Shown piece by piece: positions 11,226 through 48,266 of a stretch of DNA of 64,000 nucleotides. The stretch's first letter is position 1. Each line of letters opens with the position of its first letter. The notes beneath the pieces are model-generated. The model was not told where the DNA came from, ran no database searches, and saw only the letters and a list, made by a program, of their open reading frames with translations. This DNA comes from Elusimicrobiota bacterium. GTDB lineage: Bacteria > Elusimicrobiota > Elusimicrobia > Elusimicrobiales > UBA9959. The stretch is taken from positions 1,108-65,107 of the forward strand of contig WOVA01000007.1 in NCBI GenBank assembly GCA_009773155.1, given 5' to 3'. A program made the translations under genes and the position numbers.

Positions 11226-11228
11226 GAT

Positions 11229-24342: not shown

Positions 24343-24347
24343 AAAAT

Positions 24348-24369: not shown

Positions 24370-24435
24370 AAATTTGACTACACATTTTAGCACTATGATA
24401 CAATTTAGCGGATTCCACTGCTTACAGCCTGCTGT

Positions 24436-24776: not shown

Positions 24777-24777
24777 G

Positions 24778-26115: not shown

Positions 26116-26834
26116 TTCTTCCCTGCCGAATCAAACCACACATGATTAACGCAAATTGTATTTATGTAAGTATCGGCATAAACAAAATATCCTTTTGTCC
26201 TAAGGAATTCCTCAATATCCCTGTTTTTTACTTTACGGTGGTTTTCACTATACCCGCATGTTTCCGCGCAAATTACTGGTATAGGGTATTCAGTGAAATC
26301 AAGCGTTTTTAAAACCGGAAGATCCAGCCCTTCAATATCTATGGACAGCAAATCCGGATAGGCGGCAAAATTTTCCCTGATAATGCTGTTTATAGTCTTA
26401 ACCGGCAGCTTAATAACCGCCTGTATTTTATGGACGCCGTTCTTTTCTATGTTTTGCGCCGCTTCCCTGCTAAAGGTGTTTAACGCGGAGGATTTAAACA
26501 GGTAAAAGTCCTGTTCCGGCGCGTCATATTCACCTACGCCGATATTTAATATCGTATCTTCCGGCCTGATTTTTCTGATTATCGGGATTAAATTTTTATC
26601 CGCCTCAACCAGAACTCCCCTTGCGCCTCTCTCATAGAATTTATACGTGTTATTACTGCCTACCGGATGGGAAGCGCCCAACTCCAGATAGTGTGGCTTG
26701 CACAAACCCGTCTGCTGTAATAAAAAATCCATTACCACATCTTCACCGGCCTGCGAGTAGGAATTATTGTACTTTAGCGACGGTATGTAATGTGTTAAAG
26801 TTCTTTTTATAAAGTCTTTCATATTTTCATTCAT
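26112..26834 (-). CDS. FkbM-family SAM-dependent methyltransferase
   Basis: YLELGASHPVGSNNTYKFYERGARGVLVEADKN is an FkbM-like motif I/II arrangement. Confidence 0.6.
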   Translation of the reverse strand: MNENMKDFIKRTLTHYIPSLKYNNSYSQAGEDVVMDFLLQQTGLCKPHYLELGASHPVGSNNTYKFYERGARGVLVEADKNLIPIIRKIRPEDTILNIGVGEYDAPEQDFYLFKSSALNTFSREAAQNIEKNGVHKIQAVIKLPVKTINSIIRENFAAYPDLLSIDIEGLDLPVLKTLDFTEYPIPVICAETCGYSENHRKVKNRDIEEFLRTKGYFVYADTYINTICVNHVWFDSAGKK

Positions 26835-26835
26835 G

Positions 26836-28065: not shown

Positions 28066-28082
28066 TTTACCCTCTCTTTATG

Positions 28083-29399: not shown

Positions 29400-29401
29400 C
29401 T

Positions 29402-30664
29402 CTAACCTAAAAGCTTCAGTTTTTTGATTTTATATCTGGCAAAAACAACCCCATAGTCCCGACCGTAATATCTTGCAAATTCCGATCCTGTTTCTAAAAC
29501 GTTAAATTTGCAGATATCGTCCAATAGATCATAGTTTTCAATACCCGGCAAAGGCATGCACATTAGCCATGAATATCTCCCGGGTGCTATAAATTTCGCC
29601 GGAATCGTGATTTGAAACCGCATTATTTTTTCACCGGTGTAGTATTTGGCAAGCGGCTCGAGAATTGTAAAAATCCTCTTTTTATCCTTGTCATACAGAC
29701 TAATCGCCAGTTCTAAAAATTGCGACCAGCGTGACAAATTCAGCTCAACCAATAAGTTTATTTCCTCGTCATAATCAAACGCTTCTGCTTCTTTTAATGC
29801 TTCATCCACATTTTTAACTGAGATGAATTGATTGGTTTTGTCTGATAAATCCTCCCTTTGAATTTTTTTGATATTTTGACTTCCCCGTTTTGAATAAAAA
29901 TCAATCGCCAGTGGAGTATCATTATTAAATACCAATACGCCTTTTTCCAGAACAATCGTCTTTTCACACAACTGGGCTACTATCCCCATATTATGACTTA
30001 CAAACAAAACGGTTCTTCCTTTGTTTTTGCTGACCTCCTCCATCTTCCCGACGCATTTTTTCTGGAATTGCGCGTCTCCTACCGCGAGCACCTCGTCCAC
30101 AAGCAAAATCTCCGGCTCAAGGTTTGCGGCAACGGCAAAGGCTAACCTGACATACATTCCGGATGAATAACGCTTCACCGGCGTATCCAGAAACCGCTCA
30201 ATCTCTGCAAACGCTACAATTTCATCAAACTTGCGTTTAATCTCCATGCGGGCCATTCCGAGAATGGCGCCGTTGAGGTAAATATTTTCCCGGCCGGTCA
30301 ACTCTGGATGAAACCCTGTCCCCACCTCCAAGAGACTCGCCACCCGCCCGGTGATTTCAATCCGCCCGTTGCTCGGTTCGGTAATACGGGAAAGAAGTTT
30401 CAGCAGCGTTGACTTTCCCGCGCCGTTGCGCCCGATAATTCCTACTCTGTCACCGCGTTTGATTTCAAAAGAAACATCTTTAAGAGCAAAAAACTCCTCG
30501 GTTGTTGACGACTGTGAACCGGAAAACGGAGACAGGATTTTCCTGCCGAGATTTTGGACGCCCCGGGTTATCACATCGCGCAGGGCGGCGTAACTCTCCC
30601 GCTGCCGGTGACTGAGAATGTATTTCTTGCTGAGATTATCCACCTTAATTACAGTATCGTCCAT
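29402..30664 (-). CDS. wzt: Polysaccharide ABC exporter ATP-binding protein (Wzt/TagH-type) with C-terminal extension
   Basis: Walker A GRNGAGKST, signature YSSGMYVRLAFA, Walker B ILLVDEVLAVGD. About 170 extra C-terminal residues. Confidence 0.9.
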   Translation of the reverse strand: MDDTVIKVDNLSKKYILSHRQRESYAALRDVITRGVQNLGRKILSPFSGSQSSTTEEFFALKDVSFEIKRGDRVGIIGRNGAGKSTLLKLLSRITEPSNGRIEITGRVASLLEVGTGFHPELTGRENIYLNGAILGMARMEIKRKFDEIVAFAEIERFLDTPVKRYSSGMYVRLAFAVAANLEPEILLVDEVLAVGDAQFQKKCVGKMEEVSKNKGRTVLFVSHNMGIVAQLCEKTIVLEKGVLVFNNDTPLAIDFYSKRGSQNIKKIQREDLSDKTNQFISVKNVDEALKEAEAFDYDEEINLLVELNLSRWSQFLELAISLYDKDKKRIFTILEPLAKYYTGEKIMRFQITIPAKFIAPGRYSWLMCMPLPGIENYDLLDDICKFNVLETGSEFARYYGRDYGVVFARYKIKKLKLLG

Positions 30665-30686
30665 AAAATTTTTGCGGCAAAAATTT

Positions 30687-31526
30687 TTAAATTACATCCG
30701 CAAAAGTTTTCTCCGTTTTCCTGAAATACCAAATACCTGAAACAAGCGCAAGCAAAACCACTCCGGTAGAAATCAGGAAGCCGGGCATATAAACGGCCGA
30801 CTGCCCGCCTAGAATTGCCCAGCGGAACCCGTCTATGACTCCGACCATCGGGTTAAGCGAATAGAGCAACCGCCACTTTTGAGGTATTATACTGCTGGAA
30901 AAGCCAACCGGTGAGATATAGAGGCCCAGTTGCACAATAAAAGGAACGATATATCTAAAATCCCTGTATTTAGCATTAAGCGCGGTGAGCCAGAGACCGC
31001 ACCCCATGGCCGCCGCAAACGCAATAGCAACAAAAAACGGCAGCGTAACAATCCTCCAGTCGGGCACGAAGTGGTACCACATCATCAACCCGGCCAGAAT
31101 AAGCGCTGAAATCAGGAAATCAACAAAACCGGTGATTATGGAACTGGCGGGAATAATGAGCCTTGGGAAATAGACCTTGGAGATAAGGTTGGCATTGCCG
31201 ATGAGACTGCCGCTGGCCTCAGCAAGGGAGTTTGAGAAAAACTGCCATGGGAGCATAGCGGCAAAGACCAGAATCGGATATGGCGCGCCCTCCGATGGCA
31301 ACCTGGCCAGTTTGCCGAATACAACGGTAAACACCACCATGGTGAGAAAAGGACGAATCAGAGCCCATACGAAACCGATTACCGTCTGTTTGTAACGCAC
31401 CAGAATATCGCGCCAGGCAAGGAAATAAAACAGCTCTCTGTAGCGCCACAGATCCAGCCAGTAATGCTTTTCCGTCCGTCCCGCCTCAATGATTAGCTTC
31501 TTCTCAGTATTCATAGAGATTTTCAC
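30687..31526 (-). CDS. wzm: ABC-2 type polysaccharide exporter permease (Wzm)
   Basis: 6-TM ABC-2 pattern with LAWRDILVRYKQTVIGFVWALIRPF at the N-terminus. Adjacent to wzt. Confidence 0.9.
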   Translation of the reverse strand: MKISMNTEKKLIIEAGRTEKHYWLDLWRYRELFYFLAWRDILVRYKQTVIGFVWALIRPFLTMVVFTVVFGKLARLPSEGAPYPILVFAAMLPWQFFSNSLAEASGSLIGNANLISKVYFPRLIIPASSIITGFVDFLISALILAGLMMWYHFVPDWRIVTLPFFVAIAFAAAMGCGLWLTALNAKYRDFRYIVPFIVQLGLYISPVGFSSSIIPQKWRLLYSLNPMVGVIDGFRWAILGGQSAVYMPGFLISTGVVLLALVSGIWYFRKTEKTFADVI

Positions 31527-31594
31527 GCATTACGCTTTATAGACGCGGTGCCAATAATAGGGAAAATCAGGCGCCCAGTCGTAAAGCAATATCT

Positions 31595-32305
31595 TCATTT
31601 TTTATTGAGCTTCGCGCTCCTGCCCAGGTAGAGCGCCGTCACAAAAACAAGGTCGGCCGCGGACAGCAGCGCCGAAGCGCCGAGGAACCAGGCGCCGAAA
31701 CCGTACAGCGCGGCGAAAGGCAGAATGAAGATATGCGCCTGCGGGTCCGTAAGATTGTAATAAACCTTGTAAGGCAGCGTCCCCGTGTGCGGGAGGTAAC
31801 CGGAATCTTTTTTAGCGGCCTCCCAGCTCCCGCCCAGGGTGGCCCAGAAATCCGTCTTCACCCTGCAGGCCAGAAGCTTGGCGATGGTCACGAAAGCCCC
31901 GATCACGGGCCAGGTCTCGCCGCCTAAGCCTATGCCCAGGGCGAAATAGGAGAGGATATAGAAATTTCCCACCAGCCCGTCCCAGTATTTCCCGGCGCGG
32001 GAAGCGGTCTGCGGCCAGGCCCTGGCCAGATTGCCGTCCACGCAGTCGAAGATCGTATAAAGCAGCAGGAACAACCCGCCCCAGAACATGGCCCCGGGGC
32101 TGCCGGAAGCAAGCGTCGGCAAAGAGGCCAGCCCCAGCACGGCGGTCAGCCCGGTTATGCCGTCGGGCGTGGCGCCTAAGCGCCGCAGGAACAGGGTAAG
32201 AGGGAATGAAACAGGCCTGGCCACATAGAAAATCCAGGGATAGCCGGAATCCCAGGCCTTCTTTTCGCCGTACCCTTTCAGCAACTCCGCTTTCTCGTCG
32301 TTCAT
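31595..32305 (-). CDS. CDP-alcohol phosphatidyltransferase-like membrane protein
   Basis: Polytopic. DCVDGNLAR...G...D is only a partial match to DGx2ARx8Gx3Dx3D. Confidence 0.55.
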   Translation of the reverse strand: MNDEKAELLKGYGEKKAWDSGYPWIFYVARPVSFPLTLFLRRLGATPDGITGLTAVLGLASLPTLASGSPGAMFWGGLFLLLYTIFDCVDGNLARAWPQTASRAGKYWDGLVGNFYILSYFALGIGLGGETWPVIGAFVTIAKLLACRVKTDFWATLGGSWEAAKKDSGYLPHTGTLPYKVYYNLTDPQAHIFILPFAALYGFGAWFLGASALLSAADLVFVTALYLGRSAKLNKK

Positions 32306-32319
32306 ATGTTAGCTAAAGG

Positions 32320-33486
32320 TCAATAACTGCCCATATTTTTAAGCACCCAGATTTTAAAAAACGGGTCGGAAAACACATATCCCCCGTTTTCCTTTTCAAT
32401 TAAACCCTTTTTAAGCAAAAGCCCTACGGAAACCTGAACGGAAGATAAAGGGCCGAGCTTATAGCCCTCCGCAATTTCACCGGAGTATAATTTCCCGGCG
32501 GGTTTTTGCGCGACGACCTGCAGAAGCCTGCGCTGTTTCATCGGGATACTTTCCAGAATACCCGTATAAAAAGGAGCCTGCGTATCCGCTATGTGCGCGG
32601 AAGTTTCAGACACAAGCGCCTCCGTCAATTTCGCGCCTTCACGACATTTATTCCAAAGAAAACTGCACAAGCACTGTACATAGTACGGTATGGCGTCGGT
32701 TTCCGCAAGAATGCGTTTAAGAGCGGCTTCCCCCGCCTCAACCCCTATAGCCTTAAACCGCTCACGGATAAAAATCCGAAAATCAGCATCCATAATTTTA
32801 CCAAGGAAAACCACCCTGCCTGGTTTATAAAAAGCCCTGTCCCGGCTGTTTACCATGTCCGCAATGAGATGCTGTCTGGAACCGGAAAAGATATATGAAA
32901 CATGGTGATGAGTTTGAAAGGCGGCGCGCATAAGCTTTTCAAGAGGTTCCCCGCCAAGAACCGTCACCTCCTGGAATTCATCAAGCGCAATAACAAGCCG
33001 CTTATTGCGCCGCTTCGCCATTTTCTCGGCGGCGTTGAAAAGTTCCGAAAGCGCCGCCGATTGCTCGTTTTTTGATCTCCCCAGATCAAGAGAGGCGGAT
33101 AATTGGCCGTCCTGCTCCAGTGTTATTTTTGGCCTTAATAATGGAATGGTTTCACGGGCCATCCTGACCACGGCCTCAAGCTCCGTTTCAGTTTTAAGCA
33201 GAACTTCGTCCGTAAAAACCGCGGCAAACTGTTCCAGGGAAGCGCACCGGTACAGATCTATATAGGCTGTAAGCAGGCCCTTGCTTTTAACCCCCTCCAA
33301 TAAATTTGCCAGAAGGGATGTTTTCCCGAACCTGCGCGGAGAAATAAGTAATATCCTTTCTCCCGATTGCAAGCCTCTCGAAAGATCAATAAGTTCTTTT
33401 TTCCTGCCGGTAAAAGCCTGTCCCACGGCAATTTCACCATAAACGAACGGATTATTCATATACCCCCCTCGCTTACGTATACACAC
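32320..33486 (-). CDS. ATPase (Arch_ATPase/ORC-like AAA+ with C-terminal winged-helix-like region)
   Basis: Walker A ISPRRFGKTSLL, Walker B LVIALDEFQEV. The likely true start is MNNPFVYGE at 33459. Confidence 0.75.
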   Translation of the reverse strand: MCIRKRGGYMNNPFVYGEIAVGQAFTGRKKELIDLSRGLQSGERILLISPRRFGKTSLLANLLEGVKSKGLLTAYIDLYRCASLEQFAAVFTDEVLLKTETELEAVVRMARETIPLLRPKITLEQDGQLSASLDLGRSKNEQSAALSELFNAAEKMAKRRNKRLVIALDEFQEVTVLGGEPLEKLMRAAFQTHHHVSYIFSGSRQHLIADMVNSRDRAFYKPGRVVFLGKIMDADFRIFIRERFKAIGVEAGEAALKRILAETDAIPYYVQCLCSFLWNKCREGAKLTEALVSETSAHIADTQAPFYTGILESIPMKQRRLLQVVAQKPAGKLYSGEIAEGYKLGPLSSVQVSVGLLLKKGLIEKENGGYVFSDPFFKIWVLKNMGSY

Positions 33487-33535
33487 ATAACGTATTTATA
33501 CATAATTATTCAGGGGATTTCCAAACTAACCGCTC

Positions 33536-37440: not shown

Positions 37441-38354
37441 AGCCGGCCGCGGCGCGGCACCGGACCGAAAGCCCCGGCGACCGCCGCTTTTAATATCAGG
37501 GCCAGCTCCGGCGGGTCCACGCCCCCGTTCCGGCGCAGAGAGTCCAAAATATGCAGCGGCGTCCCGCCCAGCAGCAGGAAAGCCAGCTGCAGGGCTTTGA
37601 GCGGAAATGAAAAGTTCCGTCTTATCACCCAGAGCTTGTTCCTGTAGAGATAATAAAGCCGCTCCTTTTTAGGGCTTTTTATATCTATGTCGTGCAGGAC
37701 CCTGACCGCCGGGAAGTATCTCACCCTGAACCCGGCCAGACCGGCGCCCAGGCAAAAATCCACCTCTTCGTGCGCGGTAACATAAGAGCCGCAAAAACCC
37801 CCGCTCTTTCGCAGAGCCCCGGTCCTTATCAGTAAGCAGCTTGAGTTGAGCCAGTCGCAGTCCAGAGGGACCGCGGCGTCCTTTTCCCGGTAACGGCCGG
37901 TGAAACGGCCGACGAAATTAGCGCAATGGGCCGTACGGTCCGGCCCGGAAAGGAAGCAGAGCCGCGGGCCGGCCACTCCCAGCGACGGGTCGCGCTCCGC
38001 CCCGGAGATCAGCGAGGAGACCAGGCCCGGCGGCAGGACCACGTCGTCGTCCAGGTAAAGCGCGTAAGCGCTCTCCCCCGCCAGTTCCCCCTGCAGCCTC
38101 TCCCTCCCCCGCGCGATGTCCGCGCGGGAAGGGTTGCGCAGCAGCCGCGCGCCGCGCCAGCCGGCGGCGGCAAAAGCGCCCAGCAGCCCGTCCGCGGCGG
38201 CGGCGGAACCGTCGTCGCTCGCGTCGTCGAGCAGAACGAGGTCCATACGTTCGGCGGGGTACTCCTGCGCCAGCAGGGAAGCCAGGGTCCGTCCCAGCTT
38301 TTCCCGGCGGTTGCGGGTGCAGATGAGGACGCTTAACCGGGGGAGCGTGCTCAC
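37437..38354 (-). CDS. GT2 glycosyltransferase
   Basis: LSVLICTRNRREKL...LLDDASDDGS...YLDDD. Confidence 0.8.
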   Translation of the reverse strand: MSTLPRLSVLICTRNRREKLGRTLASLLAQEYPAERMDLVLLDDASDDGSAAAADGLLGAFAAAGWRGARLLRNPSRADIARGRERLQGELAGESAYALYLDDDVVLPPGLVSSLISGAERDPSLGVAGPRLCFLSGPDRTAHCANFVGRFTGRYREKDAAVPLDCDWLNSSCLLIRTGALRKSGGFCGSYVTAHEEVDFCLGAGLAGFRVRYFPAVRVLHDIDIKSPKKERLYYLYRNKLWVIRRNFSFPLKALQLAFLLLGGTPLHILDSLRRNGGVDPPELALILKAAVAGAFGPVPRRGRL

Positions 38355-39736
38355 GCGTCCTCCGCCTTAAGCCTGCGCGGCGGAATGCCTCCGTGCAGGA
38401 CCATTACAAAGGCCGTCAGCATCCAGAAGGGCTCCATGATGCGGACGATTATGAAAGTATTAACGCCCAGCCCCTGGAAGAGCAGCCCCACCAGGGCGAC
38501 CATCAATCCGGTGGAAACCGCCTTTATCCAGAACTCGTCGTAAGCCAGGGATACCGCCCTTGCGGCGCCGAAGACGCTGTAGAGCATCCAGAGGAAAACG
38601 AAAAAGCCGATGATCCCCAGTTCGCCCAGGACCAGGGCGTACTGATTGTCCCCCAGGCCGATACCGGTCACGCCGCGTCCCAGCAGAGGATGCTTCGGCA
38701 GATGTTCGGTCAGCACCCGGCGCAGGGAATTATAGCGCAGGTACGCGGATTCCTCGAGATTAAGCTTAACGCCCATGAACTCCACGCCTCTCGTCGCGAG
38801 CTCGCCTGTATATGTCATCCTGACGCGCTCCCTCGTTTTTTCCGATATGCCCGGCAAAATAACGCCTACTATAAGCATACCCAGGAGAGCCGTAAAAAGA
38901 AAAAGCTTACGCCTGGAAAAAATGATGAAACTGGCGGGGACCATGGCCGTCAGACCGATGTAAGAAGCCCTGGAATAGGTGGCCATAAAAACCGGCAGCA
39001 CCGCGAGCATCGCCGCTATGGCGGCCGCCGAAACGCGCAGCGGCGCGTGTACCACCAGACCCAGAAGAACCCCGAAAAGAATAAGGTAATATCCGCCCAG
39101 GGAAGCCGGCTCGGATTCGCCCGGGCTGCCGACGGCCGCTTCGAAAGGCGCCGAGGACCGGCCGTCGGGCCCGGAATTGAAATAATAGTAATAGGCGTAA
39201 ACGGTGACTATGGCGGCCACGAGAAGGGCGGCCTTGAGATACTTTTTTATCTCCGCGGGGTCCCGCACTATATTTACCGTCATGAAATACAGCAGAAAAT
39301 ACTGGATATATTTCACCACGTAGAAAAATGAAACCTTGGGATTTATATCCCCCCTGAGTATGCCGAGCCCGGTCGAGACCACGCAGAGCGCGGTATATAT
39401 AAGTATCGGCTTATGGGCGGGGGTGTCCACGATGAAGGCCCGGCCCTTTTCTATGGCGGTACGGGCGAACCAGGAAATGAAGATTATGGCGATGAGGATA
39501 TCGTCGTAGCGAACCACCACGTGGCGCTCGCTGATGGCGCCGCCGACCGGGATCTCCGGCGAGAGCAGCATGGAGAAGACGACCAGGAGCAGGCTGAGCC
39601 TGGGCGAGAAGAAAGCGAATATGGATATGCCGACGGCCAGGGCGCCGAGGACGATGAAGCCGGGCCCGGCGACCGTGACGAACCAGCCGGCCAGGACCGC
39701 GAGCACGGCAACGGCTATAGCCAGCAGATAGTTCAT
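38351..39736 (-). CDS. O-antigen ligase/polymerase-family (Wzy-like) membrane protein
   Basis: 461 aa with more than 10 TM helices and a large loop region. Sits between the GTs and wzc. Confidence 0.7.
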   Translation of the reverse strand: MNYLLAIAVAVLAVLAGWFVTVAGPGFIVLGALAVGISIFAFFSPRLSLLLVVFSMLLSPEIPVGGAISERHVVVRYDDILIAIIFISWFARTAIEKGRAFIVDTPAHKPILIYTALCVVSTGLGILRGDINPKVSFFYVVKYIQYFLLYFMTVNIVRDPAEIKKYLKAALLVAAIVTVYAYYYYFNSGPDGRSSAPFEAAVGSPGESEPASLGGYYLILFGVLLGLVVHAPLRVSAAAIAAMLAVLPVFMATYSRASYIGLTAMVPASFIIFSRRKLFLFTALLGMLIVGVILPGISEKTRERVRMTYTGELATRGVEFMGVKLNLEESAYLRYNSLRRVLTEHLPKHPLLGRGVTGIGLGDNQYALVLGELGIIGFFVFLWMLYSVFGAARAVSLAYDEFWIKAVSTGLMVALVGLLFQGLGVNTFIIVRIMEPFWMLTAFVMVLHGGIPPRRLKAEDA

Positions 39737-39743: not shown

Positions 39744-41612
39744 TTACCGCTTCACGTAGTTGTTGTAGTCGTAGTAATAGTAGCCGTACTGGGGGCCCAT
39801 CTCGGAGGCGCGCACGCCGTTGAGGACGACGCCGATCATGCGGGCGTTGACGCCCGTGATCTGTTCCTTGGCGCGGCGCAGGGCCCCGCGGGCTATCTTG
39901 CCGGCCTTGTAGACCAGCACGACGCCGTCGGTGTGTTTGGCCAGTATGACGGAATCTATGAAGAGCAGCACCGGCGGCGCGTCGAAGATTATAACGTCGA
40001 ACTCGCTCTTGAGCGAACTCATCAGCTCTTCCCAGCGCCAGGAATCCAGCAGATCGACGACATTGGCCGGCGTGGCGCCGCAGTTGATTATCTTGAGGTT
40101 CTCCACGCCCTGGAAGCGCATCAGGTGCTCGAAGTTCATGCCGCCCATGATGAAGTCGGCGCTCTCGGTGACGACCTCATGCCATTCCGCGCGGCCGGCG
40201 AGGACGTCGCTCAGGCCCGGCTGTTTGTCCAGGCCGAATATCTGGTATATCGCGGGCCGGCGCAGGTCGGCGTCGATCAGCAACGTCTTGAGTCCGGAAT
40301 TGGCGCTGGCCAGGGCGAAGTTGACCGCGGTGAGCGTCTTGCCCTCGGCGGCGCCGGCGGAACTGAACACCACGGCGAAGCTTTCTTTCGTGTTGAGGTT
40401 GGAGACGATATTGGTGCGCAGCGTATGGTAAGCCTCTATCACGCTGGAGGCGTAGCGCTTATTGAAGATGAGCGCGCTGCGGAAGGCCTCCACGGTATAG
40501 CGCTCCTTCTTGAAGAACTGCGTGAGCCAATTATCCAGCGGCTTCTCGCTGAGGATGTTGGGGATCAGGCCAAGTACCGGCAATTTCAGGAAGCCTTCGA
40601 TATCCTCGATGGTACTTATCGAAACGTCCAGATTCTCCAGGATGAAGACCAGCACGATGGCCAGGAACAGCCCCATGAAGATGCCTACCATCAGGTTTAG
40701 CTGCTTGTTGGGCGAAACGGGGGAGCCGGACGGCGTAGGAGGATTGATCACAGTGACGAAGGAGACTATGGACGAGACCCCCAGCTTGGAGGACTCATGC
40801 TCCCTATTGAGCGTGGTATAGAGCTCCTCCTGCATGCGCAGTTCGCGGGTCATGCGCACCAGTTCGGTCTCCTGGGCGGGGAGCTCGGCCAGCTTGGACT
40901 GCAGCACCCCTATGCGCTGCTCTATGTTCATTATCTCCGGGTGGTTGGGGGTGTATTTCTCCAGCAGCTCGCGTTTGCGTATCTCCATATCCGCCAGCTG
41001 GTTGGCCAGCACGGAGCTCATGCCTGATTTGGGATTGCGCTCGTAGAAGGACTGCCTCTGTCGCTCCAGCGAGCGGAGGCTGCTTTCGACCTCCGCTTTC
41101 CTGGCGGAGATATCGTCGAGCGTCTTGCGGACGTGCGCGCTCTTCTGTTCCAGGTCGTATTCCCGGTACGCTTCTATTACCGCCTGCACGGTCCGGGCGG
41201 CCAGCTGGGGGTTGGGGCTGAAGGCTGATATATTGATGAGGTTGGAGTCCTGCAGCCTTTCGGCCTTATAAGAGGCGAGCAGCGAGGCTACGCGCTGGGC
41301 ATCGGCGGCGTCGCGTTTAAGCAGGCCGAGCCTGGCCGCCGCCCTTTCCGCCACTTCCGCCGAGGTTATGACGCGCAATTCCGTCGCCACCGCTCCCCAC
41401 GGGTCCCATTCCGTCGTCATATCGGAGCCTGGCAGCCTGGCGTAGCTGGCCGGCGGCTTGAACTTTATCACGCCCTGGCTTTTATAAGTGACGGGCTGCA
41501 GGCGGGTATAGAAAAGGACCGAGAGTATCGTGACCGCGAAAGTGAGCATCGCCACCCATTTACGGCGGTTTATGATGCGCCAATAGTCGTAAAGAGTGAG
41601 TTCGGAGTTCAT
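39744..41612 (-). CDS. wzc: Polysaccharide co-polymerase / BY-kinase (Wzc-like tyrosine autokinase)
   Basis: Start reassigned to MNSELTLYDYWRII (ATGA overlap with the wza stop). Walker A SAGAAEGKT, A' LLIDADLRRP, B VIIFDAPPVL. Tyr-rich tail QYGYYYYDYNNY. Confidence 0.85.
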   Translation of the reverse strand: MNSELTLYDYWRIINRRKWVAMLTFAVTILSVLFYTRLQPVTYKSQGVIKFKPPASYARLPGSDMTTEWDPWGAVATELRVITSAEVAERAAARLGLLKRDAADAQRVASLLASYKAERLQDSNLINISAFSPNPQLAARTVQAVIEAYREYDLEQKSAHVRKTLDDISARKAEVESSLRSLERQRQSFYERNPKSGMSSVLANQLADMEIRKRELLEKYTPNHPEIMNIEQRIGVLQSKLAELPAQETELVRMTRELRMQEELYTTLNREHESSKLGVSSIVSFVTVINPPTPSGSPVSPNKQLNLMVGIFMGLFLAIVLVFILENLDVSISTIEDIEGFLKLPVLGLIPNILSEKPLDNWLTQFFKKERYTVEAFRSALIFNKRYASSVIEAYHTLRTNIVSNLNTKESFAVVFSSAGAAEGKTLTAVNFALASANSGLKTLLIDADLRRPAIYQIFGLDKQPGLSDVLAGRAEWHEVVTESADFIMGGMNFEHLMRFQGVENLKIINCGATPANVVDLLDSWRWEELMSSLKSEFDVIIFDAPPVLLFIDSVILAKHTDGVVLVYKAGKIARGALRRAKEQITGVNARMIGVVLNGVRASEMGPQYGYYYYDYNNYVKR

Positions 41613-42298
41613 CAGCGTCCGTCCGTAGCCAGGTGCATGCTCAGAGCGAAAGTCCCCAGCATCAGCCAGGGCAGCAGATTGTCGCTGAGCCACTTCGTGG
41701 TGGAGGCCAGCTTCTTACGGGGAACATAGACCACGTCGCCGGGCTTGAGGGAGATGTTCTTATCCATCACCCCGTCGAATACCTCGTCCAGCCTGGCCTC
41801 GAAAACTTCCTCTTTGACGCCGCCATCCGCGACTTTTACCGAGCGGAAAACGCGCAGGTCGCCGGTACGGGCGTAGTCCTGCAGGCCGCCCGACTGGGCG
41901 ACCAGTTCGAGCAGCTTCATCCCCTCCCTGTACTCGAAATACCCGGGGTTGCGCACCTGGCCGATTATGGCCACCCGGTAGGAAGAGAATTTTCTGACAT
42001 TAACGGTGATGCTGGGATTGGAAACGTATTTGGAGAACCTGGCGGTAAGGATATTCTGGAGCTCGTCCGCCTTCATTCCCTGGACTTTCAGCGAGCCCAG
42101 CAGCGGCACCTCTATGGTCCCGTCGGGCTGCACGGTGACTTCCCTGGAGAATTCTTCGGCCGGGAAGACATTTACGCTTATGACGTCTCCGGGCGATACG
42201 TAATGCGCGCCGGGTGTGACCAGGGACAGGCCCTGGGCGCAGAGCCCGGCGGGAAAGGTATTCAGAAAAATAACTAAAGCGGCTGCCAGTCGTTTCAT
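41612..42298 (-). CDS. wza: Polysaccharide export outer-membrane protein (Wza-like; Poly_export + SLBB)
   Basis: Signal peptide. PGDVISVNVFPAEEFSREVTVQPDGTIEVPLLGSLKVQGM is typical of the Poly_export domain. Confidence 0.85.
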   Translation of the reverse strand: MKRLAAALVIFLNTFPAGLCAQGLSLVTPGAHYVSPGDVISVNVFPAEEFSREVTVQPDGTIEVPLLGSLKVQGMKADELQNILTARFSKYVSNPSITVNVRKFSSYRVAIIGQVRNPGYFEYREGMKLLELVAQSGGLQDYARTGDLRVFRSVKVADGGVKEEVFEARLDEVFDGVMDKNISLKPGDVVYVPRKKLASTTKWLSDNLLPWLMLGTFALSMHLATDGR

Positions 42299-42346: not shown

Positions 42347-42952
42347 TCAGCGCCGGCCGGGGGTCTCCACGGCCCTGGAAAGACTTATGACTATGGTGCG
42401 AAGTTCCTCTATCCTGCGTTCCAGTTCCTTCTCCCTGGCGCCGTCCTGGGCGGGGGCCGCGGAAAAAGACTGTCCCCCCGGCGATCGCATCTCCAGAGCC
42501 TCTATCTTGCGCCTGAGCCTCTCTATCTTCTCGTTGGCGCCGAACTCGGGCGCTCCGCGGCGGCGGGAGTTGAAATAATAGCCCACCAGCATCAGGAAAG
42601 AGGCGACGGCGAAGAGCATGAAAGCGACGGAGCCGAAAAGAACGAGGTAAGGATAAGACCCTATAACTCCCAGGGCCGACGCCAGGACCGATATGAGCAA
42701 ACCGAAGATAAGGGTCTCCTTGTTCTCGGCCCAGATGAGCGAGCCGTGATGTTCCGGCGCCGGACCGGCGGCGGGCTCGGCCAGGGGCCGGCGATTGCGG
42801 CTGGTGATACCGGGGCCATGGGTCCAGGGGACACCATGCGGCATGGCGTCCCCGGCGGGCGGCTCGGGGGGCCGGACTTTCCGCTCGACCTCCGGGGTCT
42901 CCTCGCGCAGCCTGCCCAGCATGCGGGCCAGGTCTTCCATCCCGCCGCTCAT
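42347..42952 (-). CDS. Two-TM membrane protein with C-terminal coiled coil (third gene of the coiled-coil operon)
   Basis: TM segments LIFGLLISVLASALGVIG and LVLFGSVAFMLFAVASFLMLVGYYF, then EKIERLRRKIEALE...ELERRIEELR. Its ATG shares one nt with the upstream TAA. Confidence 0.6.
   Translation of the reverse strand: MSGGMEDLARMLGRLREETPEVERKVRPPEPPAGDAMPHGVPWTHGPGITSRNRRPLAEPAAGPAPEHHGSLIWAENKETLIFGLLISVLASALGVIGSYPYLVLFGSVAFMLFAVASFLMLVGYYFNSRRRGAPEFGANEKIERLRRKIEALEMRSPGGQSFSAAPAQDGAREKELERRIEELRTIVISLSRAVETPGRR
42827..42853. repeat. Near-perfect palindrome ggggacaccatgcggcatggcgtcccc (copy 1, intragenic)
   Basis: Same core as 62208..62232. Translated in frame as GDAMPHGVPW. Confidence 0.85.
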
Positions 42953-43671
42953 TATTTCCTCCCCGCGTCGGGCGTCGCGGCCTCGCGCCCGGCCAGCGAC
43001 TTTTCCCTGGCCTGCAGTTCGGCCCGCGCCCGCTCGAAAGTCTTTATCAGTTCGGCTTTTTTCAGCGCGAATTCGTCCTCAAGAGCGCTTTCCCTGCCGG
43101 CCAGGGCCTTCTTCCCGGCCGCGAGCCGTTTTTCGATATCGGCCTCCAGTTCCCTCAGGGCCCCGTCGCGCCGCTCCAGTTCGCCGTTTTTTTCCTCCCA
43201 GGAAGACAGCATCTCCAGTTCCTTCCTGTTGAGCTTGTCGTAGAGTTCCTTCATCCTGGCGACGTACCTGGAGTTCAGCCCGCTCTCGTTCTCGGCGCCG
43301 GCGGCCCTGGCGTCGGCCAGCGCCGACTCTTTCTTCCTGAGCTCGTCGGACAGCTGCGCTATCCTACCGTGCAGGCCGGCGCGCTCGGCGTCTCCGGCGG
43401 CTACCCGGTCCTTAAGGTCGCTTATCTGGGCCTCCAGCACGGCGGCTTTCTCCGCGTGCTCGCGCTCGGCTATGGCCAGGCGGCCGGCGTAGCCCGCCTC
43501 GTACTCGCCCAGCACCTTCTCCATCGAGGTGACCTCGTCCCCGAACTCCTCTATCAGCGCGCTGACATGCACGGCGGCCGGGTTCTTCTCGTCCCAGAGC
43601 CTGCGGGAGAGTGTCTGCAGGTTGCGCACCAGGTCGAGCGGCACGCATTTGACGGCTTTTTCCTTTTCCAT
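42952..43671 (-). CDS. Coiled-coil protein, 239 aa (second gene of the coiled-coil operon)
   Basis: E/A/R/K/L-rich heptad-like sequence with no TM and no enzymatic motif. 1-nt gap to the upstream gene. Confidence 0.6.
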   Translation of the reverse strand: MEKEKAVKCVPLDLVRNLQTLSRRLWDEKNPAAVHVSALIEEFGDEVTSMEKVLGEYEAGYAGRLAIAEREHAEKAAVLEAQISDLKDRVAAGDAERAGLHGRIAQLSDELRKKESALADARAAGAENESGLNSRYVARMKELYDKLNRKELEMLSSWEEKNGELERRDGALRELEADIEKRLAAGKKALAGRESALEDEFALKKAELIKTFERARAELQAREKSLAGREAATPDAGRK

Positions 43672-43672
43672 A

Positions 43673-46600
43673 TTATTTCTTGCCCTTGTACTCGGCTATC
43701 GCGCGGGAGAGCTCCATGCGCATCTTCTCCAGCTCGGCGGACTTGCGCGCGTACTCCTTGTCCAGCTCCAGCCGGCGCGACTCAAGATCCCTTTCCCTGG
43801 CGGCGTCGGCCCGCCGCATCTCGCCGATTTCCTGGTCGATGGCCGCGGCCCTTATGGACAGCTCGCCCTGGCGGGCGTCCAGTTCCAGCTGTTTGCGCCC
43901 GTAGACCGCCTCGCGTTCCTTGAGCGTCCTGTCCTTGCTGGCGGCCAGCTCCTCCAGCCGCGCCAGGCGCTCCTCGTAATCCTTGCGGGTCTGCCCGACC
44001 TGCCTGAAGTAGCCCTCTTCCAGCTCCAGTTGCCGTTTCTGGAACTCGGCTATGACGTCCTTGAACTTCTCCTCCTGCCCGGCCAGCTGCCTGACCACCG
44101 TCTCGGCGGCCTCCTGCCTGTGCGCTATAAGCTGCCGCTCCAGGTCGGCTATCTTCAGGCCGGCGGCCTCGGCGTATTTCTCGCGCTTGCCGAGCTCCGC
44201 CAGCAGGCGGTCCTTCTCGGCGGCGGAGGCCTCGCGGGACCTGGCGAGCTCCAGTTCATAGTCGTCGCGCATGGAGGCTATTTCCTCCTCAGCCATGGCG
44301 ATCTTCCTGACCAGGCCCTCCGTGACCTTCTCTACTGCGGCCCGGGTGCGGGCGTCCAGCTCGGCGGCGTGGGATTCGCGCAGGGACAGCGTCTCTTCCT
44401 TGTGCTCGCGCACCTTCTGCATCAGCTCGTCGAACACTTTGGCGGCGCGTGTACCGGACGCGGCAGCCTCCCCGCGCAGCGAGGATATGCTGGCGCGCAG
44501 AGCCTCGTTCTCCTCGTGGAGCTGGGCGAGGCGCACCTCTACGGTCTTCTCGCTCTGGCCGGACTTGCGGGAGTACTCGGCCTCGAGAGCCGCGCGCAGC
44601 TGCGCTGTCTCATCCTCCAGCTCGGCCCGCCTGGCGTCGTAGCGGCTCTCGAGCTCGGCAACCTTTTCCGAGAGAGCGGAACTATCCTCGAAGGCATGCC
44701 TGGCGCGGTATTCGCGCTCGGTTCTGGCCGCCGCGTCGCGGGCTTCGGCCAGGTCGTTCTCCAGCCTGGAAACTTTATCTTCCAGGGCGCCCTTAACGGA
44801 CTTTAGGTCCTCCAGGGCGCCGGCCAGGGCGGCGGTGCGGACCCCGACCGCTTCCTCTACGCGGGCCTGGGCCTCCTTCTCGGCCGCGGCGCGGACCTCG
44901 CCCAGCTCGCGGCTGAACCGGGATTCCGCGGCGATCAGCTCCTCGCCGGCCCGGCGGTTGGCCTCCAGCAGCGAACGCACCTCGGCGCGGGAAGCTTCGG
45001 CGCTCTTTTCGGCGCCGGACAGGAGCCCTTCCAGGCGTTCTTTTTCCGCCGACAGCATGGAACGCTGATCGGCCAGGGCTTTTTCGAATTCCCCCTCCCT
45101 GGCTTTTACAGCGTCGGCCGCTGCCGAAAGAGATTTCTGTTTCTCGGCGGCCAGCTCAGCCTGCATTGAGCGGACCATGGATTCGAGCTCCCCGGCTCTT
45201 CGGGCGGCGGCGGCGGACATATCGGCGAAACGTTTGTCCGCCAGGGATTCCGATTCTTTTGCCCGGGCCTCGGACGCCGCCCGCTCCCTGGCGCGCGAAG
45301 CCTCCGCTTCCGCCAGCGCCTTATTGAAAAGTTCCTCTTTCTCCTTTATCCGGCGCATGACCTCCGCGTTCAGCTCGTCGCCGGCCGCGGCAAGTTTAGC
45401 GCCCAGTTCTCCGGTCCTGACCTTCTCCGCCTCCAGCGCGGACTTAAGTTCTGACTGCTCCGCGGTCAGCGCCTCCGCCTGTGCCGCCTTCTCCCGGCCG
45501 AAGCGCTCTTTCAGCTCCGCCTCGCGGGCCTCGTATTCGGAGCGGTCCTTGGCCCTGAGGGCCTCCATCTCCGCGAGGCTGCGGGAGAAGAAATCTTCTT
45601 TCTCCCTTATAAGGCGCATGGCCTCCGCGGAGCGCTCTTCCCCTGAAAGCGAGAGTTTTTTCTCCAGCTCGTACGCCTTGAAACGTTCGGCCTCCAGGGC
45701 CGCTTTCAGGGCGTCACGGTCGGCGGCGTAGCGGGAATCCAGCTCGGCGGCCTTCCTGCCCAGGGCCGTCTCGTAAGAGGAGGCCAGTTCGGCCTCGCGC
45801 GCCGCGAAGGCGGCGGCCGCGGACTCCATCTCGGCCACGCGCGCGCGGAAAAATTCGTCTTTTTTGGCCAGCTGCCGCATGACCTCCTCCGAGGTCCTCT
45901 CCTGCACCGAGGCCATAGAGTTCTCCAGCTCGCGAATCTTCTCCTGCGCGTTCCGGAACTGGTCTTCGCGCACGCGCTGCTCGTCCGTCAGGCGGGCCCG
46001 TTCCACGGCCCAGGTAGATTCCAGCGACCGCAGCTGCTGCGCGTGCTCGGTGTCCACGGAACGTATCCTCGCGTCGAAAGACGTTTCCAGTTCGGCGCGG
46101 AGGCGGCGGAAATTCCCGTCCACCTCGTTCTTTTTGGAGAGGAACTCGCTCTCGAGCTCCTTGCGCCGGGCTTCGATCCCCCCCTCGGAACCGCGCACCG
46201 ACTTTTCCAGCATCTCTATGCGGGACTTAAGCTCGGCTTCCTTGGACTTATAGTTCTTCTCCAATGCGGTAAGGCGGGACTGGTGCTCGGAGTCCACCTC
46301 GGAGCGGAGAGAGTCGTATTTAGCCTGCGCCTCGCTGAGGCGCGCGGCGTACTGGGTCTCTACGTCCAGCAGGCGCTGGTTCCAGCGCTCTATGACGCCT
46401 TTCTGCTTACGGTCGAGTTCCTCGAACTTGGCCTGGTACTCGTCCTCCAGCGCTGAGCGGAGCTGGTCGAGGCGGTTCTCCTTGCGCAGCAGCTGCTGCA
46501 GGTCGAGCTTGCCCTCGCCCAGCAGGGACATGGTGGCTTCCAGCTTGGAGTAGAAACCCTCTTTTTCATCGAGGGTCTTGGAGCGGCTGCGGAAAGATTC

Positions 46601-46792
46601 TTCCAGTTCCCGGACGCGGGATTCGAGCTGCTTGCGGTCGCCCTCGGCCATGCCGAGGTTCTTCTTGAGCTCGGCGCGCTCTTTTTCGATGCCGTTGAGG
46701 CGCTCCAGCGCCCAGCGCAGCGTCATCCTCGCCGTGTCTATACTGGTGACGTCGTTCACCAGTTGTTCGAGCTCGTTATATTCGTCGGCCAT
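43673..46792 (-). CDS. Giant coiled-coil protein, 1039 aa, with internal ~87-aa repeats
   Basis: Start reassigned to MADEYNELEQL (ATG 46792, preceded by GAGGT). Almost continuous E/A/R/K/L composition. Repeats begin ERTSEEVMRQLAKKDEFF / EERSAEAMRLIREKEDFF / DELNAEVMRRIKEKEELF. Confidence 0.7.
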   Translation of the reverse strand: MADEYNELEQLVNDVTSIDTARMTLRWALERLNGIEKERAELKKNLGMAEGDRKQLESRVRELEESFRSRSKTLDEKEGFYSKLEATMSLLGEGKLDLQQLLRKENRLDQLRSALEDEYQAKFEELDRKQKGVIERWNQRLLDVETQYAARLSEAQAKYDSLRSEVDSEHQSRLTALEKNYKSKEAELKSRIEMLEKSVRGSEGGIEARRKELESEFLSKKNEVDGNFRRLRAELETSFDARIRSVDTEHAQQLRSLESTWAVERARLTDEQRVREDQFRNAQEKIRELENSMASVQERTSEEVMRQLAKKDEFFRARVAEMESAAAAFAAREAELASSYETALGRKAAELDSRYAADRDALKAALEAERFKAYELEKKLSLSGEERSAEAMRLIREKEDFFSRSLAEMEALRAKDRSEYEAREAELKERFGREKAAQAEALTAEQSELKSALEAEKVRTGELGAKLAAAGDELNAEVMRRIKEKEELFNKALAEAEASRARERAASEARAKESESLADKRFADMSAAAARRAGELESMVRSMQAELAAEKQKSLSAAADAVKAREGEFEKALADQRSMLSAEKERLEGLLSGAEKSAEASRAEVRSLLEANRRAGEELIAAESRFSRELGEVRAAAEKEAQARVEEAVGVRTAALAGALEDLKSVKGALEDKVSRLENDLAEARDAAARTEREYRARHAFEDSSALSEKVAELESRYDARRAELEDETAQLRAALEAEYSRKSGQSEKTVEVRLAQLHEENEALRASISSLRGEAAASGTRAAKVFDELMQKVREHKEETLSLRESHAAELDARTRAAVEKVTEGLVRKIAMAEEEIASMRDDYELELARSREASAAEKDRLLAELGKREKYAEAAGLKIADLERQLIAHRQEAAETVVRQLAGQEEKFKDVIAEFQKRQLELEEGYFRQVGQTRKDYEERLARLEELAASKDRTLKEREAVYGRKQLELDARQGELSIRAAAIDQEIGEMRRADAARERDLESRRLELDKEYARKSAELEKMRMELSRAIAEYKGKK

Positions 46793-46953
46793 AGTTACCT
46801 CTGATAAGCCGCATACCGGCTTTCTCCGCTCCCGCCTTAAATTCAGCCTTAACAGTTTAACATGGCCCGCCCCCCTATTCAATAAAGGGATTGTTAAATG
46901 AATATTAAATGATTGTTACGCAGCCGACCGCCTATTTTATAGAATCATACGGG

Positions 46954-47376
46954 ATGCTCAGGAAAAAACGCTTCTATTTCTTCCTCCTGCTGACCTGCGC
47001 CGCGGCGGCGCTTTGGCATTTCCACCCTTATCTTTTCAGGGCTTTTTTCAGGGTTTCCGGCACGGTGGACCTGGCCCCGGGTTCGGCCGGGTTCCGGCCG
47101 AAGCCCAATACCATGCTCTTCATAGTCGCCCGGGACGAGGGAGGGGTCCCGTTCGCCGTACTGAAGGTCATAAACCCATCCTTCCCGCTGTCTTATTCGA
47201 TGGACAGCTCCGACCTCATCCTGCCCGAACTGCTGCCGCTCAGACTCCGGCTGGAAGCCTTTCTCAATACCCACGGCGAGATAGGCGCACCGAGGCGCGG
47301 GGACCTCTACGGTTCGCTGGACCGGGAAGTATTCCTGGCCGAGCAGGACTGCGATCTGCTGCTGGACCCAGTGTAG
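46954..47376 (+). CDS. Hypothetical protein with N-terminal TM; C-terminal part faintly resembles the CcmH/CcmI C-terminal domain
   Basis: MLRKKRFYFFLLLTCAAAALW. ...MLFIVARDEGGVPFAVLKV...PLSYSMD...RLEAFLNTHGEIGAPRRGDLYG. The stop codon TAG lies inside the inverted repeat of the element downstream. An alternative ATG is at 46909. Confidence 0.45.
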   Translation: MLRKKRFYFFLLLTCAAAALWHFHPYLFRAFFRVSGTVDLAPGSAGFRPKPNTMLFIVARDEGGVPFAVLKVINPSFPLSYSMDSSDLILPELLPLRLRLEAFLNTHGEIGAPRRGDLYGSLDREVFLAEQDCDLLLDPV

Positions 47377-47774: not shown

Positions 47775-47948
47775 ATGACGTGGGAAGAGCTTTCCAGGAA
47801 GTATGACACCGACAATACCCGCCGGCAGGAGCCCAGGACGGCCGTAAAGGGCCGGCCCTGGCAGGAGATAATGAAGTCGACCGACAAGCTGGTCTGGCTT
47901 TTCCTGGTGACCGGCGGCAACAAAAGCAATACGGCAAAAGCGGGCTGA
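47775..47948 (+). CDS. Small hypothetical protein, 57 aa (below the ORF-track cut-off)
   Basis: GAGGGGG SD 7 nt upstream of the ATG. MTWEELSRKYDTDNTRRQEPRTAVKGRPWQEIMKSTDKLVWLFLVTGGNKSNTAKAG. Followed by a strong terminator. Confidence 0.45.
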   Translation: MTWEELSRKYDTDNTRRQEPRTAVKGRPWQEIMKSTDKLVWLFLVTGGNKSNTAKAG

Positions 47949-48026: not shown

Positions 48027-48266
48027 TCAGGGATAGAGGGGATCGATGCGATCGAAGCCCATATAGAGAAGCAGTGCCCCCAGCAGCGCCAACAGCAGCC
48101 CCACGCTCCTGCGGTTGAGCGCCACCCAGGAATCATTGAGCACGGTCTCGCGCAGCACCTTGTTGAGCTTCAGCATCAGGTCCGGCTTGTAGAGATAGCC
48201 CATGCCGGCCGCAAGGAAGATAAAGCCGAGCGCTATTTTCAGGAGCGGGGGTACGTTAAATTGCAT
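48027..48266 (-). CDS. Small two-TM membrane protein, hypothetical
   Basis: 79 aa with two hydrophobic helices. Overlaps the pth stop by 11 nt. Confidence 0.45.
   Translation of the reverse strand: MQFNVPPLLKIALGFIFLAAGMGYLYKPDLMLKLNKVLRETVLNDSWVALNRRSVGLLLALLGALLLYMGFDRIDPLYP

Follow-up and report, generated by a model that had tools for sequence, protein, structure and literature searches.

Among the described coiled-coil scaffolds of bacteria, crescentin follows a heptad pattern interrupted by a stutter and is not known to have a dedicated transmembrane (TM) partner, and Scy of Streptomyces is built on a repeat of 51 residues. FilP and Scy start with an RGYDxxEVD motif and a heptad segment, which are followed by a hendecad-containing rod (PMC9858780). 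SF-assemblin has a coiled-coil rod with a 29-residue super-repeat (PMC2119799), and PodJ of Caulobacter combines cytoplasmic coiled coils, a disordered region, a single TM segment, and periplasmic TPR and peptidoglycan-binding domains (PMC8980812). Here, we analyze three adjacent genes, denoted A, B, and C, from a 64,000-nucleotide stretch of the genome of an Elusimicrobiota bacterium (contig WOVA01000007.1 of assembly GCA_009773155.1, positions 1,108 to 65,107; hereafter, the window). The genes encode a long coiled-coil rod protein, a putative coiled-coil adaptor, and a predicted inner-membrane anchor, respectively, and are located next to the genes for the polysaccharide export proteins Wza and Wzc.

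We propose that A, B, and C constitute an Elusimicrobiota-specific, membrane-tethered coiled-coil rod system that organizes envelope export. The structural core of this proposal, a membrane-tethered rod complex, is very probable; a specific role in organizing envelope export is tentative and falls somewhat short of an even chance. For these two reasons taken together, we regard the combined statement as evenly poised.

Three coupled genes under purifying selection

The initial annotation of this DNA described three minus-strand open reading frames (ORFs) with a 1-nt gap, a 1-nt overlap, and a GAGGT Shine–Dalgarno sequence ahead of the first, all of which the sequence bears out (Table 1). The A/B junction reads AAA-TAA-t-ATG, with the gap of 1 nt, whereas the B/C junction, GGGAGGAAATAATG, contains the overlap and a strong Shine–Dalgarno sequence ahead of C. 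GAGGT lies 5–9 nt 5′ of the ATG of A. The mechanically called ORF of A is longer, reaching a TTG at 46882, and we place the start of the gene at the ATG at 46792 because nearly all homologues begin there, with M-A-[ND]-E-Y. The G+C content at third codon positions (GC3) of the three genes, 0.79–0.84, is comparable to that of core genes, and the ratio of nonsynonymous to synonymous substitutions (dN/dS) against close relatives is 0.10–0.23 (0.10–0.21 for A), with Wzc and Prs being more tightly constrained (~0.05–0.09). A, B, and C are real genes under purifying selection, with native GC3. Their junctions and homologues also uphold the original description of the triad as translationally coupled genes for coiled-coil proteins with a membrane anchor, and the module is conserved and predicted to be all-alpha.

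A word-indexed search with A retrieved 73 homologues, and all those that bear names come from metagenome-assembled genomes (MAGs) of Elusimicrobia; the named homologues of B and C are likewise from Elusimicrobia only. A genome scan, which listed MAGs only, found at least 103 species-representative genomes with a relative, and every title naming a phylum reads Elusimicrobia or Elusimicrobiota. The signature TARMTLRWAL, which occurs once in the window, retrieved at least 103 genome loci and 150 metagenome loci when used as a pattern. Finally, an exhaustive profile search with residues 1–345 of A yielded 327 proteins at E ≤ 1e-3; many of these are shorter (~290–1340 aa) and have only the first ~110 residues in common with A, and the sampled proteins with names are from Elusimicrobiota. 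On this evidence, A-B-C is restricted to Elusimicrobiota wherever records bear names.

None of Pfam, NCBIfam, and PHROGs has a family that matches A, B, or C significantly, and scans extended to all members of the alignments of the A head and of B produced only scattered sub-threshold coiled-coil noise. A profile search of the PDB with the A head yielded nothing significant (best E of 0.007, to coiled-coil proteins), and Foldseek searches with AlphaFold2 models of the A head and of B returned zero matches, as expected for extended helices. The supposition that the triad belongs to no described family has thus withstood searches of Pfam, NCBIfam, PHROGs, PDB, and Foldseek. The family is undescribed in the literature retrieved on Elusimicrobia coiled coils, on Wzc and coiled-coil cytoskeleton, and on Elusimicrobia Wza, and no giant cytoplasmic coiled-coil partner of Wzc was encountered in the publications retrieved on Wzc and coiled coils or cytoskeleton.

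Some source databases label the homologues “chromosome segregation ATPase” or “Zn-ribbon protein,” and B has a weak match to the SMC model TIGR02169, confined to the coiled-coil region (E of 1.3e-4; 19.8 bits against a cut-off of 729), both of which would favor an SMC/MukB-like chromosome organizer. Against this, a motif search found neither Walker A (G....GK[ST]) nor CxxC in A, B, or C, in keeping with the earlier remark that the two larger proteins have no recognizable nucleotide-binding motif. SMC/MukB/Rad50-like proteins were rejected for want of an ABC-ATPase motif and a CxxC zinc hook, and the length changes of the A rod by arbitrary tandem repeats (see below) are hard to reconcile with a strictly paired antiparallel arm. 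A phage tape measure was rejected too: A matched only phrog_3590 (unknown function; E of 0.0095, 16.4 bits), B and C matched none of the PHROGs, and the neighbors of the module are housekeeping and exopolysaccharide (EPS) genes, with no phage genes nearby. Homology to SMC/MukB or to a tape measure had been named at the outset as a threat to the proposal; it was searched for and none was found. With purifying selection and native GC3 arguing in addition that the frames are genuine, the possibilities that the triad is a chromosome organizer, a tape-measure remnant, or not a set of genes at all are effectively refuted.

A predicted straight rod with conserved ends

Protein A contains no proline, no cysteine, and no hydrophobic segment; it comprises 16% Ala and has a net charge of -31. 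A and B are predicted to be cytoplasmic because both have neither a signal peptide nor a TM segment. In the AlphaFold2 model of residues 1–345 of A (predicted local distance difference test score, 87; predicted template modeling score, 0.26), the hinge is the sole non-helical break, separating a single helix of residues 2–92, the head, from a second helix of residues 98–344. The hydrophobic period of the head is 3.46–3.5 residues. Within the close clade, sequence identity is 84% over residues 1–40 and 70–75% over residues 81–160, falls to 13–30% in the middle of the rod, and returns to 50% in the last 40 residues. Two arginines, R22 and R26, do not vary, and Y159 hardly does. As the alignments have it, conservation in A is confined to its two ends. 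Two other readings of such a protein were rejected: a secreted surface fibril, given that A has no signal peptide and that the TM-type members place the rod N-terminally, in the cytoplasm; and a membrane-coating amphipathic helix, given the net charge of -31 and the narrowness of the hydrophobic stripe.

The rods had been described as heptad-like, a description that has to be abandoned, because the hydrophobic period is ~3.62 rather than 3.50 residues. The spectral peak of the window rod lies at 3.628 residues (power of 11.7 versus a shuffle 99th percentile of ~1.6), and across 48 family members the median period is 3.624 (interquartile range, 3.622–3.627), with a power of 4–31 against the same percentile of ~1.6. 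The autocorrelation of the rod is positive at lags 7, 11, 18, 22, 25, 29, 40, 51, 58, and 87, near zero at 21, and negative at 28, and the pattern is therefore one of 7+11+11 = 29 residues per 8 turns, not of heptad runs. The phase of the seam is steady from residue 98 to ~620, with a single modest shift near 640–680, and the hydrophobic phase is held along whole rods across the family. An α-helix without distortion has 3.63 residues per turn (PMC9858780); since the rod has this period, it is predicted to be almost un-supercoiled.

Three tandem 87-residue repeats in the rod (Table 1) emerged from a windowed diagonal score (111 versus at most 55 in shuffles); a BLASTP comparison of A against itself showed no repeats. 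Further copies of the 87-aa repeat were sought in the rest of the family with a hidden Markov model (HMM), which detected none; because the repeats are lineage-specific, the HMM is useless for counting units family-wide. Family members range from ~730 to 2957 aa, and others carry tandem repeats of their own, of 152, 232, and 283 residues; like the 87-residue unit, these are whole numbers of 3.625-residue turns (87 = 24 turns; 232 = 64 turns). Judged by these repeats, the rod is lengthened and shortened through independent tandem repeats, with an estimated length of ~140 nm in the window genome and of about 110–440 nm across the family. Separately, tandem A paralogues of 1365 and 420 aa, the second starting ...MALRWALERL, follow immediately after an AbiEi/AbiEii toxin-antitoxin pair in locus L080 (8472–15446).

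Predicted adaptor, anchor, and membrane attachment across the family

Across the family, B always comes after A. The invariant residues of the B head are C9-V10-P11, L25-W26, and N30-P31, and in the AlphaFold2 model of B, a helix of residues 12–29 is followed by a kink and a helix of residues 31–232. Protein C consists, from the N- to the C-terminus, of a short helix, a Pro-rich linker, a TM hairpin, and two conserved helices. The membrane anchoring proposed earlier for the third protein agrees with its hydropathy, which places a hydrophobic hairpin at residues ~81–127, and both termini of C are predicted to be cytoplasmic because of the positive-inside rule, as applied to the flanks of the hairpin.

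Comparison of the family members suggests a constant theme, namely, membrane attachment at the C-terminal end of A, which is reached in five ways. The first is that of the window, with separate B and C genes. The second is a direct fusion between the B head and the C hairpin (L011, L012, and P0094). In the third (L063 and L065), A is followed by a gene whose product has a C-like N-terminus, continues with a TM segment, and then forms a long B-like coil. The fourth characterizes the short-member clade, in which an A protein of 430–560 aa is followed directly by a clear B homologue (B-HMM E of 2e-12 to 8e-18) and, with 4-nt overlaps, by a third protein consisting of a helix, a Pro-rich linker, one TM segment, and a ~220-aa periplasmic domain. 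The match of this third protein to the C-family HMM is not significant (E of 0.005–0.28), and its likeness to C is in domain layout only. In the fifth way, a TM segment and a periplasmic domain are fused to the C-terminus of A itself (TM-type proteins, denoted A′), with others being simply tail-anchored. The periplasmic domain of the short clade matches all nine A′ proteins in BLASTP (25–30% identity; E of 3e-6 to 7e-4, values that come from a small search space), and the domains have repeated “SLW.VD...RLY” blades in common.

Among 157 signature-bearing proteins, the TM segment and the tail motif are mutually exclusive: 69 have the tail only, 15 have the TM segment only, and none has both. 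The simplest reading would be that the C-terminal end of A is at the membrane, either directly or via B and a membrane protein, with the head being distal. By the same comparisons, the fusions of B to C and of A to the membrane part tie the parts of the module together, and the invariant core appears to be A, B, and the C-terminal membrane attachment, not the polysaccharide-export link. If true, such shuffling of rod, adaptor, TM, and periplasmic parts amounts to clean Rosetta-stone evidence for a multi-protein complex.

The periplasmic domains raise the question of whether the rod is a trans-envelope tether, connected through a TM segment and a propeller-like periplasmic domain to peptidoglycan, the outer membrane, or a surface layer, and organizing either Wza-Wzc polysaccharide or giant type IX secretion system (T9SS)-type proteins, depending on the lineage. 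The ~220-aa extracytoplasmic domain of A′ and of the short-clade third protein, with its weak YWTD-propeller-like match, would suit such a tether, as would the giant FN3/Kelch/TIG proteins (some with CHU_C) and the PorV/PorP/UPF0164-like barrels encountered in three contexts (L071, L011, and L100/L103/L106). In L071, a giant surface protein paired with a PorV/UPF0164-like barrel comes after A′, and in L011 such a pair comes after the B::C fusion. However, the window C has a periplasmic loop of only 3 residues and no extracytoplasmic domain, so that a link across the envelope would here have to involve a further partner, for which the divergent Ig-like TM protein encoded next to A is a candidate, and the association with surface proteins comes from few independent loci. 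We consider a trans-envelope tether quite improbable and retain the rod tethered at the inner membrane as the preferred structure.

Table 1. Features of the A-B-C module and of the adjoining genes in the window
Feature	Position	Strand	Description and basis
Gene A	43673..46792	-	1039-aa proline-free coiled-coil rod protein, 118 kDa, pI 5.3; ORF
Shine–Dalgarno sequence of A, GAGGT	46797..46801	-	Sequence read
A head, residues 1–92	46517..46792	-	Canonical heptad helix, best-conserved part of A; AlphaFold2, periodicity
Signature T20-A-R-M-T-L-R-W-A-L29	46706..46735	-	Invariant alignment columns; defines the family
Hinge, residues 93–97 (G-E-G-K-L)	46502..46516	-	Invariant G94, adjoining invariant L91
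A rod, residues 98–1039	43676..46501	-	Non-heptad coiled coil, 29/8 hydrophobic period, ~141 nm if extended
Three tandem 87-residue repeats, residues 297–383, 384–470, 471–557	45122..45904	-	Windowed diagonal score
A tail, last ~40 residues (...ELEKMRMELSRAIAEYKGKK)	43676..43795	-	Conserved C-terminal motif
Gene B	42952..43671	-	239-aa coiled-coil adaptor, conserved ~65-aa head; ORF, homologues
Gene C	42347..42952	-	201-aa predicted inner-membrane anchor; ORF, homologues, alignment, hydropathy
C transmembrane hairpin, residues 81–127	42572..42712	-	3-residue loop; conserved ENKE before, NSRRRG after
wza	41612..42298	-	Short OPX protein of 228 aa, separated from C by 48 nt; Poly_export + SLBB
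wzc	39744..41693	-	PCP/BY-kinase; Walker A, A′, B + Tyr cluster
wzy/O-antigen-ligase-like polymerase	38351..39736	-	Next co-oriented ORF; orthologue with weak Wzy_C match; syntenic in close clade
Small TM protein, Ig_CycH-like	46909..47376	+	Divergent from A; Pfam E=2.3e-5, below family cut-off

Genomic neighborhood and linkage to Wza-Wzc

The 48-nt distance to wza and the common orientation, noted in the initial annotation, are confirmed by the coordinates, and there is no terminator-like site on the minus strand across this gap. The neighboring Wza-Wzc pair has the features of outer-membrane polysaccharide export (OPX) and class 2a polysaccharide co-polymerase (PCP-2a) proteins, with A, B, and C being devoid of any such domain. 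Wzc carries the motifs AGAAEGKT, LLIDAD, and VIIFDAPP and a C-terminal YGYYYYDYNNY, and its orthologues have Wzz, GNVR, and AAA_31 domains. The start of Wzc is probably an internal ATG (M28, ~41612), with a 1-nt overlap with the wza stop, as suggested by the ORF coordinates and by orthologues of 618 aa.

Neighborhoods in the close clade were counted on de-duplicated loci, considering only those that could be evaluated. L25 and Pth are located upstream in 51/52 loci, and the divergent Ig_CycH-like TM gene is present in all 52. A-B-C-Wza-Wzc are adjacent in 28 of 33 loci, with 2 more having an insertion of ~3 kb between C and Wza. In the TM-type clade, Wza-Wzc are directly upstream of A′ in 8 loci, in another order and with the housekeeping block absent, and 3 further distant loci have Wza/Wzc within 4–8 kb. 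The predicted linkage of the triad to EPS genes was therefore upheld as a frequent arrangement, adjacent or nearly so in the close clade and reordered in 8 distant loci, but not as a universal one. Comparison of these loci indicates that the Wza-Wzc link is real and recurs in different arrangements, the broader theme being envelope and surface export loci.

Several observations weigh against the proposed rod system and its role in export. Wza/Wzc are missing in 3/33 close loci (L002, L011 [L012 alike], and L055); in L002 and L011, A-B are still beside prs-L25-pth and Wza/Wzc are gone. They are not nearby in 7/18 distant loci, where the neighbors include ComEC, an ECF sigma factor, an M13 peptidase, and glycosyltransferases, nor anywhere in the short-member clade, where the neighbors are a PorP/SprF-like barrel with TPR repeats, a small CHU_C protein, and a giant FN3-rich CHU_C protein. 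With Wza/Wzc absent in several clades, export scaffolding cannot be the universal function of the module. Synteny within the close clade extends over all genes from prs to wzy, so that the 28 loci are not independent. On the structural side, a period of ~3.6 residues suits other straight amphipathic helices too, and AlphaFold2 monomer models of coiled coils are uninformative on oligomeric state and filament formation. The end of the L063 protein matches the B profile, but with a strong compositional bias that makes the match merely suggestive, and the homology between the periplasmic domains is weak.

One alternative, which the lack of Wza/Wzc near the module in the short clade and in several distant loci would favor, is that A, B, and C are a general cytoskeleton for cell shape, division, or polarity, the position beside wza-wzc being inherited synteny or a sign of loose co-regulation of envelope genes. 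The invariant core of A, B, and anchor excludes Wza/Wzc, two close loci keep A-B at the housekeeping genes after losing the export genes, and the upstream housekeeping block is better preserved than the downstream link; moreover, the architecture is akin to that of FilP/Scy and crescentin-type proteins. What argues against it is that Wza-Wzc occur in at least three arrangements, namely, downstream of the module, directly upstream of it, and at 4–8 kb or less on the opposite strand, and a functionally unlinked gene would be unlikely to be found beside Wza-Wzc in all three. The genes in the window are also tightly packed and co-oriented, with no terminator-like site. A general cytoskeleton thus seems rather doubtful, although it deserves serious weight next to the export-linked rod system that we prefer.

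Bacterial tyrosine kinases (BY-kinases) are P-loop ATPases that are activated by peptide segments of partner proteins, and one of A, B, or C could be a non-structural regulator, adaptor, or substrate of the Wzc autokinase, with the Arg-rich head docking on the ParA/MinD-like kinase domain. An intact BY-kinase adjoins the module in two clades, and the invariant R22 and R26 and the near-invariant Y159 would be compatible with this role. Nevertheless, a rod of 700–2900 residues, lengthened independently many times, would be superfluous for a regulator, and many family members have no Wzc nearby, which makes this explanation very improbable compared with a structural rod.

Several additional features were observed in this neighborhood. 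The Ig_CycH-like protein, with its TM segment at the N-terminus, could be a partner of the module in the periplasm. Two small conserved ORFs separate its gene from pth: a ~75-aa two-TM ORF (~48040–48263, minus strand), overlapping the end of pth, and a ~56-aa ORF (MTWEE...STDKLVWLF; 47775–47945, plus strand). The latter is on the strand of A in L001 and L003 but on the opposite one in the window and in L002, as a small inversion might explain. Wza is unusually short and has a single Poly_export domain, a single SLBB domain, and a hydrophobic stretch at its C-terminus. It resembles the short OPX classes that depend on a separate outer-membrane barrel (PMC9603273); no barrel of this kind was identified here.

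Proposed model

In the proposed model, A would form an elongated, almost un-supercoiled α-helical rod, parallel and two-stranded or of higher order. The tail of A would dock on B and B on C, placing the tail end at the cytoplasmic face of the inner membrane. Cultured Elusimicrobia are 0.15–0.3 μm wide (PMC7308576), and the rod would run along the membrane or the long cell axis because its length equals or exceeds the width of the cell and only its two ends are conserved. Through these ends, rods may join end to end or side by side and so build a cortical filament or scaffold resembling intermediate filaments, with the head of A possibly being the binding site for a partner or for a second copy of A. 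In the window, A-B-C are probably co-transcribed with wza-wzc-wzy, and the assembly would position Wza-Wzc or other envelope export machinery.

A bolder version would see in the family a new class of bacterial cytoskeleton, in which straight 29/8 rods of up to ~0.44 μm assemble by head and tail beneath the inner membrane, are coupled to the envelope via TM and periplasmic parts, and, with a length tuned by repeats, serve as spacers or rulers for surface-polymer export machines (Wza-Wzc or T9SS-like surface-protein loci). As a whole, we judge it unlikely.

If the proposed system is real, it represents a phylum-wide and previously unannotated cytoskeletal or scaffold system in a phylum whose cell biology is almost unknown. 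It would also provide coiled-coil structural biology and protein design with a natural series of straight 29/8 rods of ~110–440 nm, and suggest a testable idea of how sites of Wzx/Wzy-type export or surface-protein secretion are placed in the cell, a placement that is poorly understood beyond a few model organisms. Even without the export link, A-B-C would be a new family of membrane-tethered, intermediate-filament-like proteins.

Other features of the window and of related loci

The EPS locus of the window contains a low-GC island at ~24000–33500 (GC of 0.40–0.52 versus ~0.64 elsewhere; GC3 of 0.43–0.58), probably representing horizontally acquired glycan-synthesis genes, with an AAA_14/DUF4143 ATPase at its edge (23164–24342). 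Positions 16362–19763 (minus strand) encode a 1133-aa fusion of a glutamine amidotransferase/asparagine synthase with a GT4 glycosyltransferase, and positions 1–3464 (minus strand) a protein of >1154 aa, cut by the window edge, with an NHL-repeat beta-propeller and TPR regions. The 1135- and 696-aa ORFs at 4394–7801 and 10293–12383 (both minus strand), which are rich in Arg, Gly, Ala, and Val and have no Pfam match, look like antisense shadow ORFs of high-GC genes rather than real genes.

Giant FN3/Kelch/TIG genes lie by the A module in L071 (13753–20102), L011 (14114–21582), L100 (3143–8151), and L106 (13496–20776), and T9SS-like cargo and shuttle genes outside Bacteroidota may merit separate study. 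In the short clade, a HAMP-HisKA-HATPase sensor kinase gene is divergent from A in L102 (8543–9913, minus strand), and an ORF that looks homologous to it is present in L106 (8521–9900, minus strand). The opposite strand carries an MltG/YceG gene a few kb upstream, in L103 (7080–8069, minus strand; Pfam-confirmed) and in L102 (7180–8145, minus strand; similar N-terminus), where it adjoins the sensor kinase gene. The kinase and MltG/YceG neighbors hint at a link to cell-wall control.

Comparison with known systems

By working mode, the closest described system is FilP/Scy of Streptomyces. Like A, these proteins have a short conserved N-terminal heptad motif, a long Ala-rich non-heptad rod of very variable length and near-straight predicted geometry, and no nucleotide-binding domain. 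The rod of A is Ala-rich and has the period (3.624) and the lags (11, 18, and 22) of a hendecad-rich rod, which indicates functional resemblance, not membership. The period of A is 29/8 = 3.625 residues, rather than that of pure hendecads, and A belongs to another phylum, has no RGYDxxEVD motif and no detectable homology to FilP/Scy, and, in contrast to them, is accompanied by adaptor and TM-anchor partners. Membership in DivIVA/GpsB/FilP/Scy was rejected, given that an RGYDxxEVD regular expression is absent from A, B, and C and that there is no Pfam DivIVA match at E ≤ 1.

Crescentin and other coiled-coil-rich proteins also form long coiled-coil rods at the membrane and a nucleotide-independent cytoskeleton with effects on envelope processes, as predicted for A, and A has the layout of this group, with a dominant rod, short conserved ends, an all-helical AlphaFold2 model, and no proline. 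The crescentin rod itself (PF19220) was rejected as a relative: A has no match to it, and the match of 1 of 16 B homologues to Rod_CreS at E=0.001 is noise. SF-assemblin and beta-giardin have the same 29/8 = 3.625 residues per hydrophobic turn as A. SF-assemblin, however, is composed of four heptads and a skip residue (4x7+1) instead of 7+11+11; it is eukaryotic, 253 residues long, and microtubule-binding, and has no homology to A.

PodJ and the TM-type A′ proteins have the same layout of coiled coils, one TM segment, and a periplasmic domain, and the role of PodJ and of TipN/HubP/FimV-type landmarks as positional scaffolds for envelope organelles is similar to that proposed for A. The disordered, TPR, and peptidoglycan-binding parts of PodJ are absent, the window splits rod and anchor over three proteins, and there is no sequence similarity; a PodJ-type scaffold was rejected because A′ has no TPR or peptidoglycan-binding Pfam match and the window A has no TM segment. 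Wzc/PCP-2a proteins and modulators of BY-kinases resemble A-C in being encoded in the same operon-like run and in having coiled coils, but differ in the Wzz, GNVR, and kinase domains, which A, B, and C do not have. Within the coiled-coil-rich, intermediate-filament-like scaffolds, A-B-C is, as far as its sequences tell, set apart by the signature motif, the periodicity of the rod, the adaptor and anchor proteins dedicated to it, and its restriction to one phylum.

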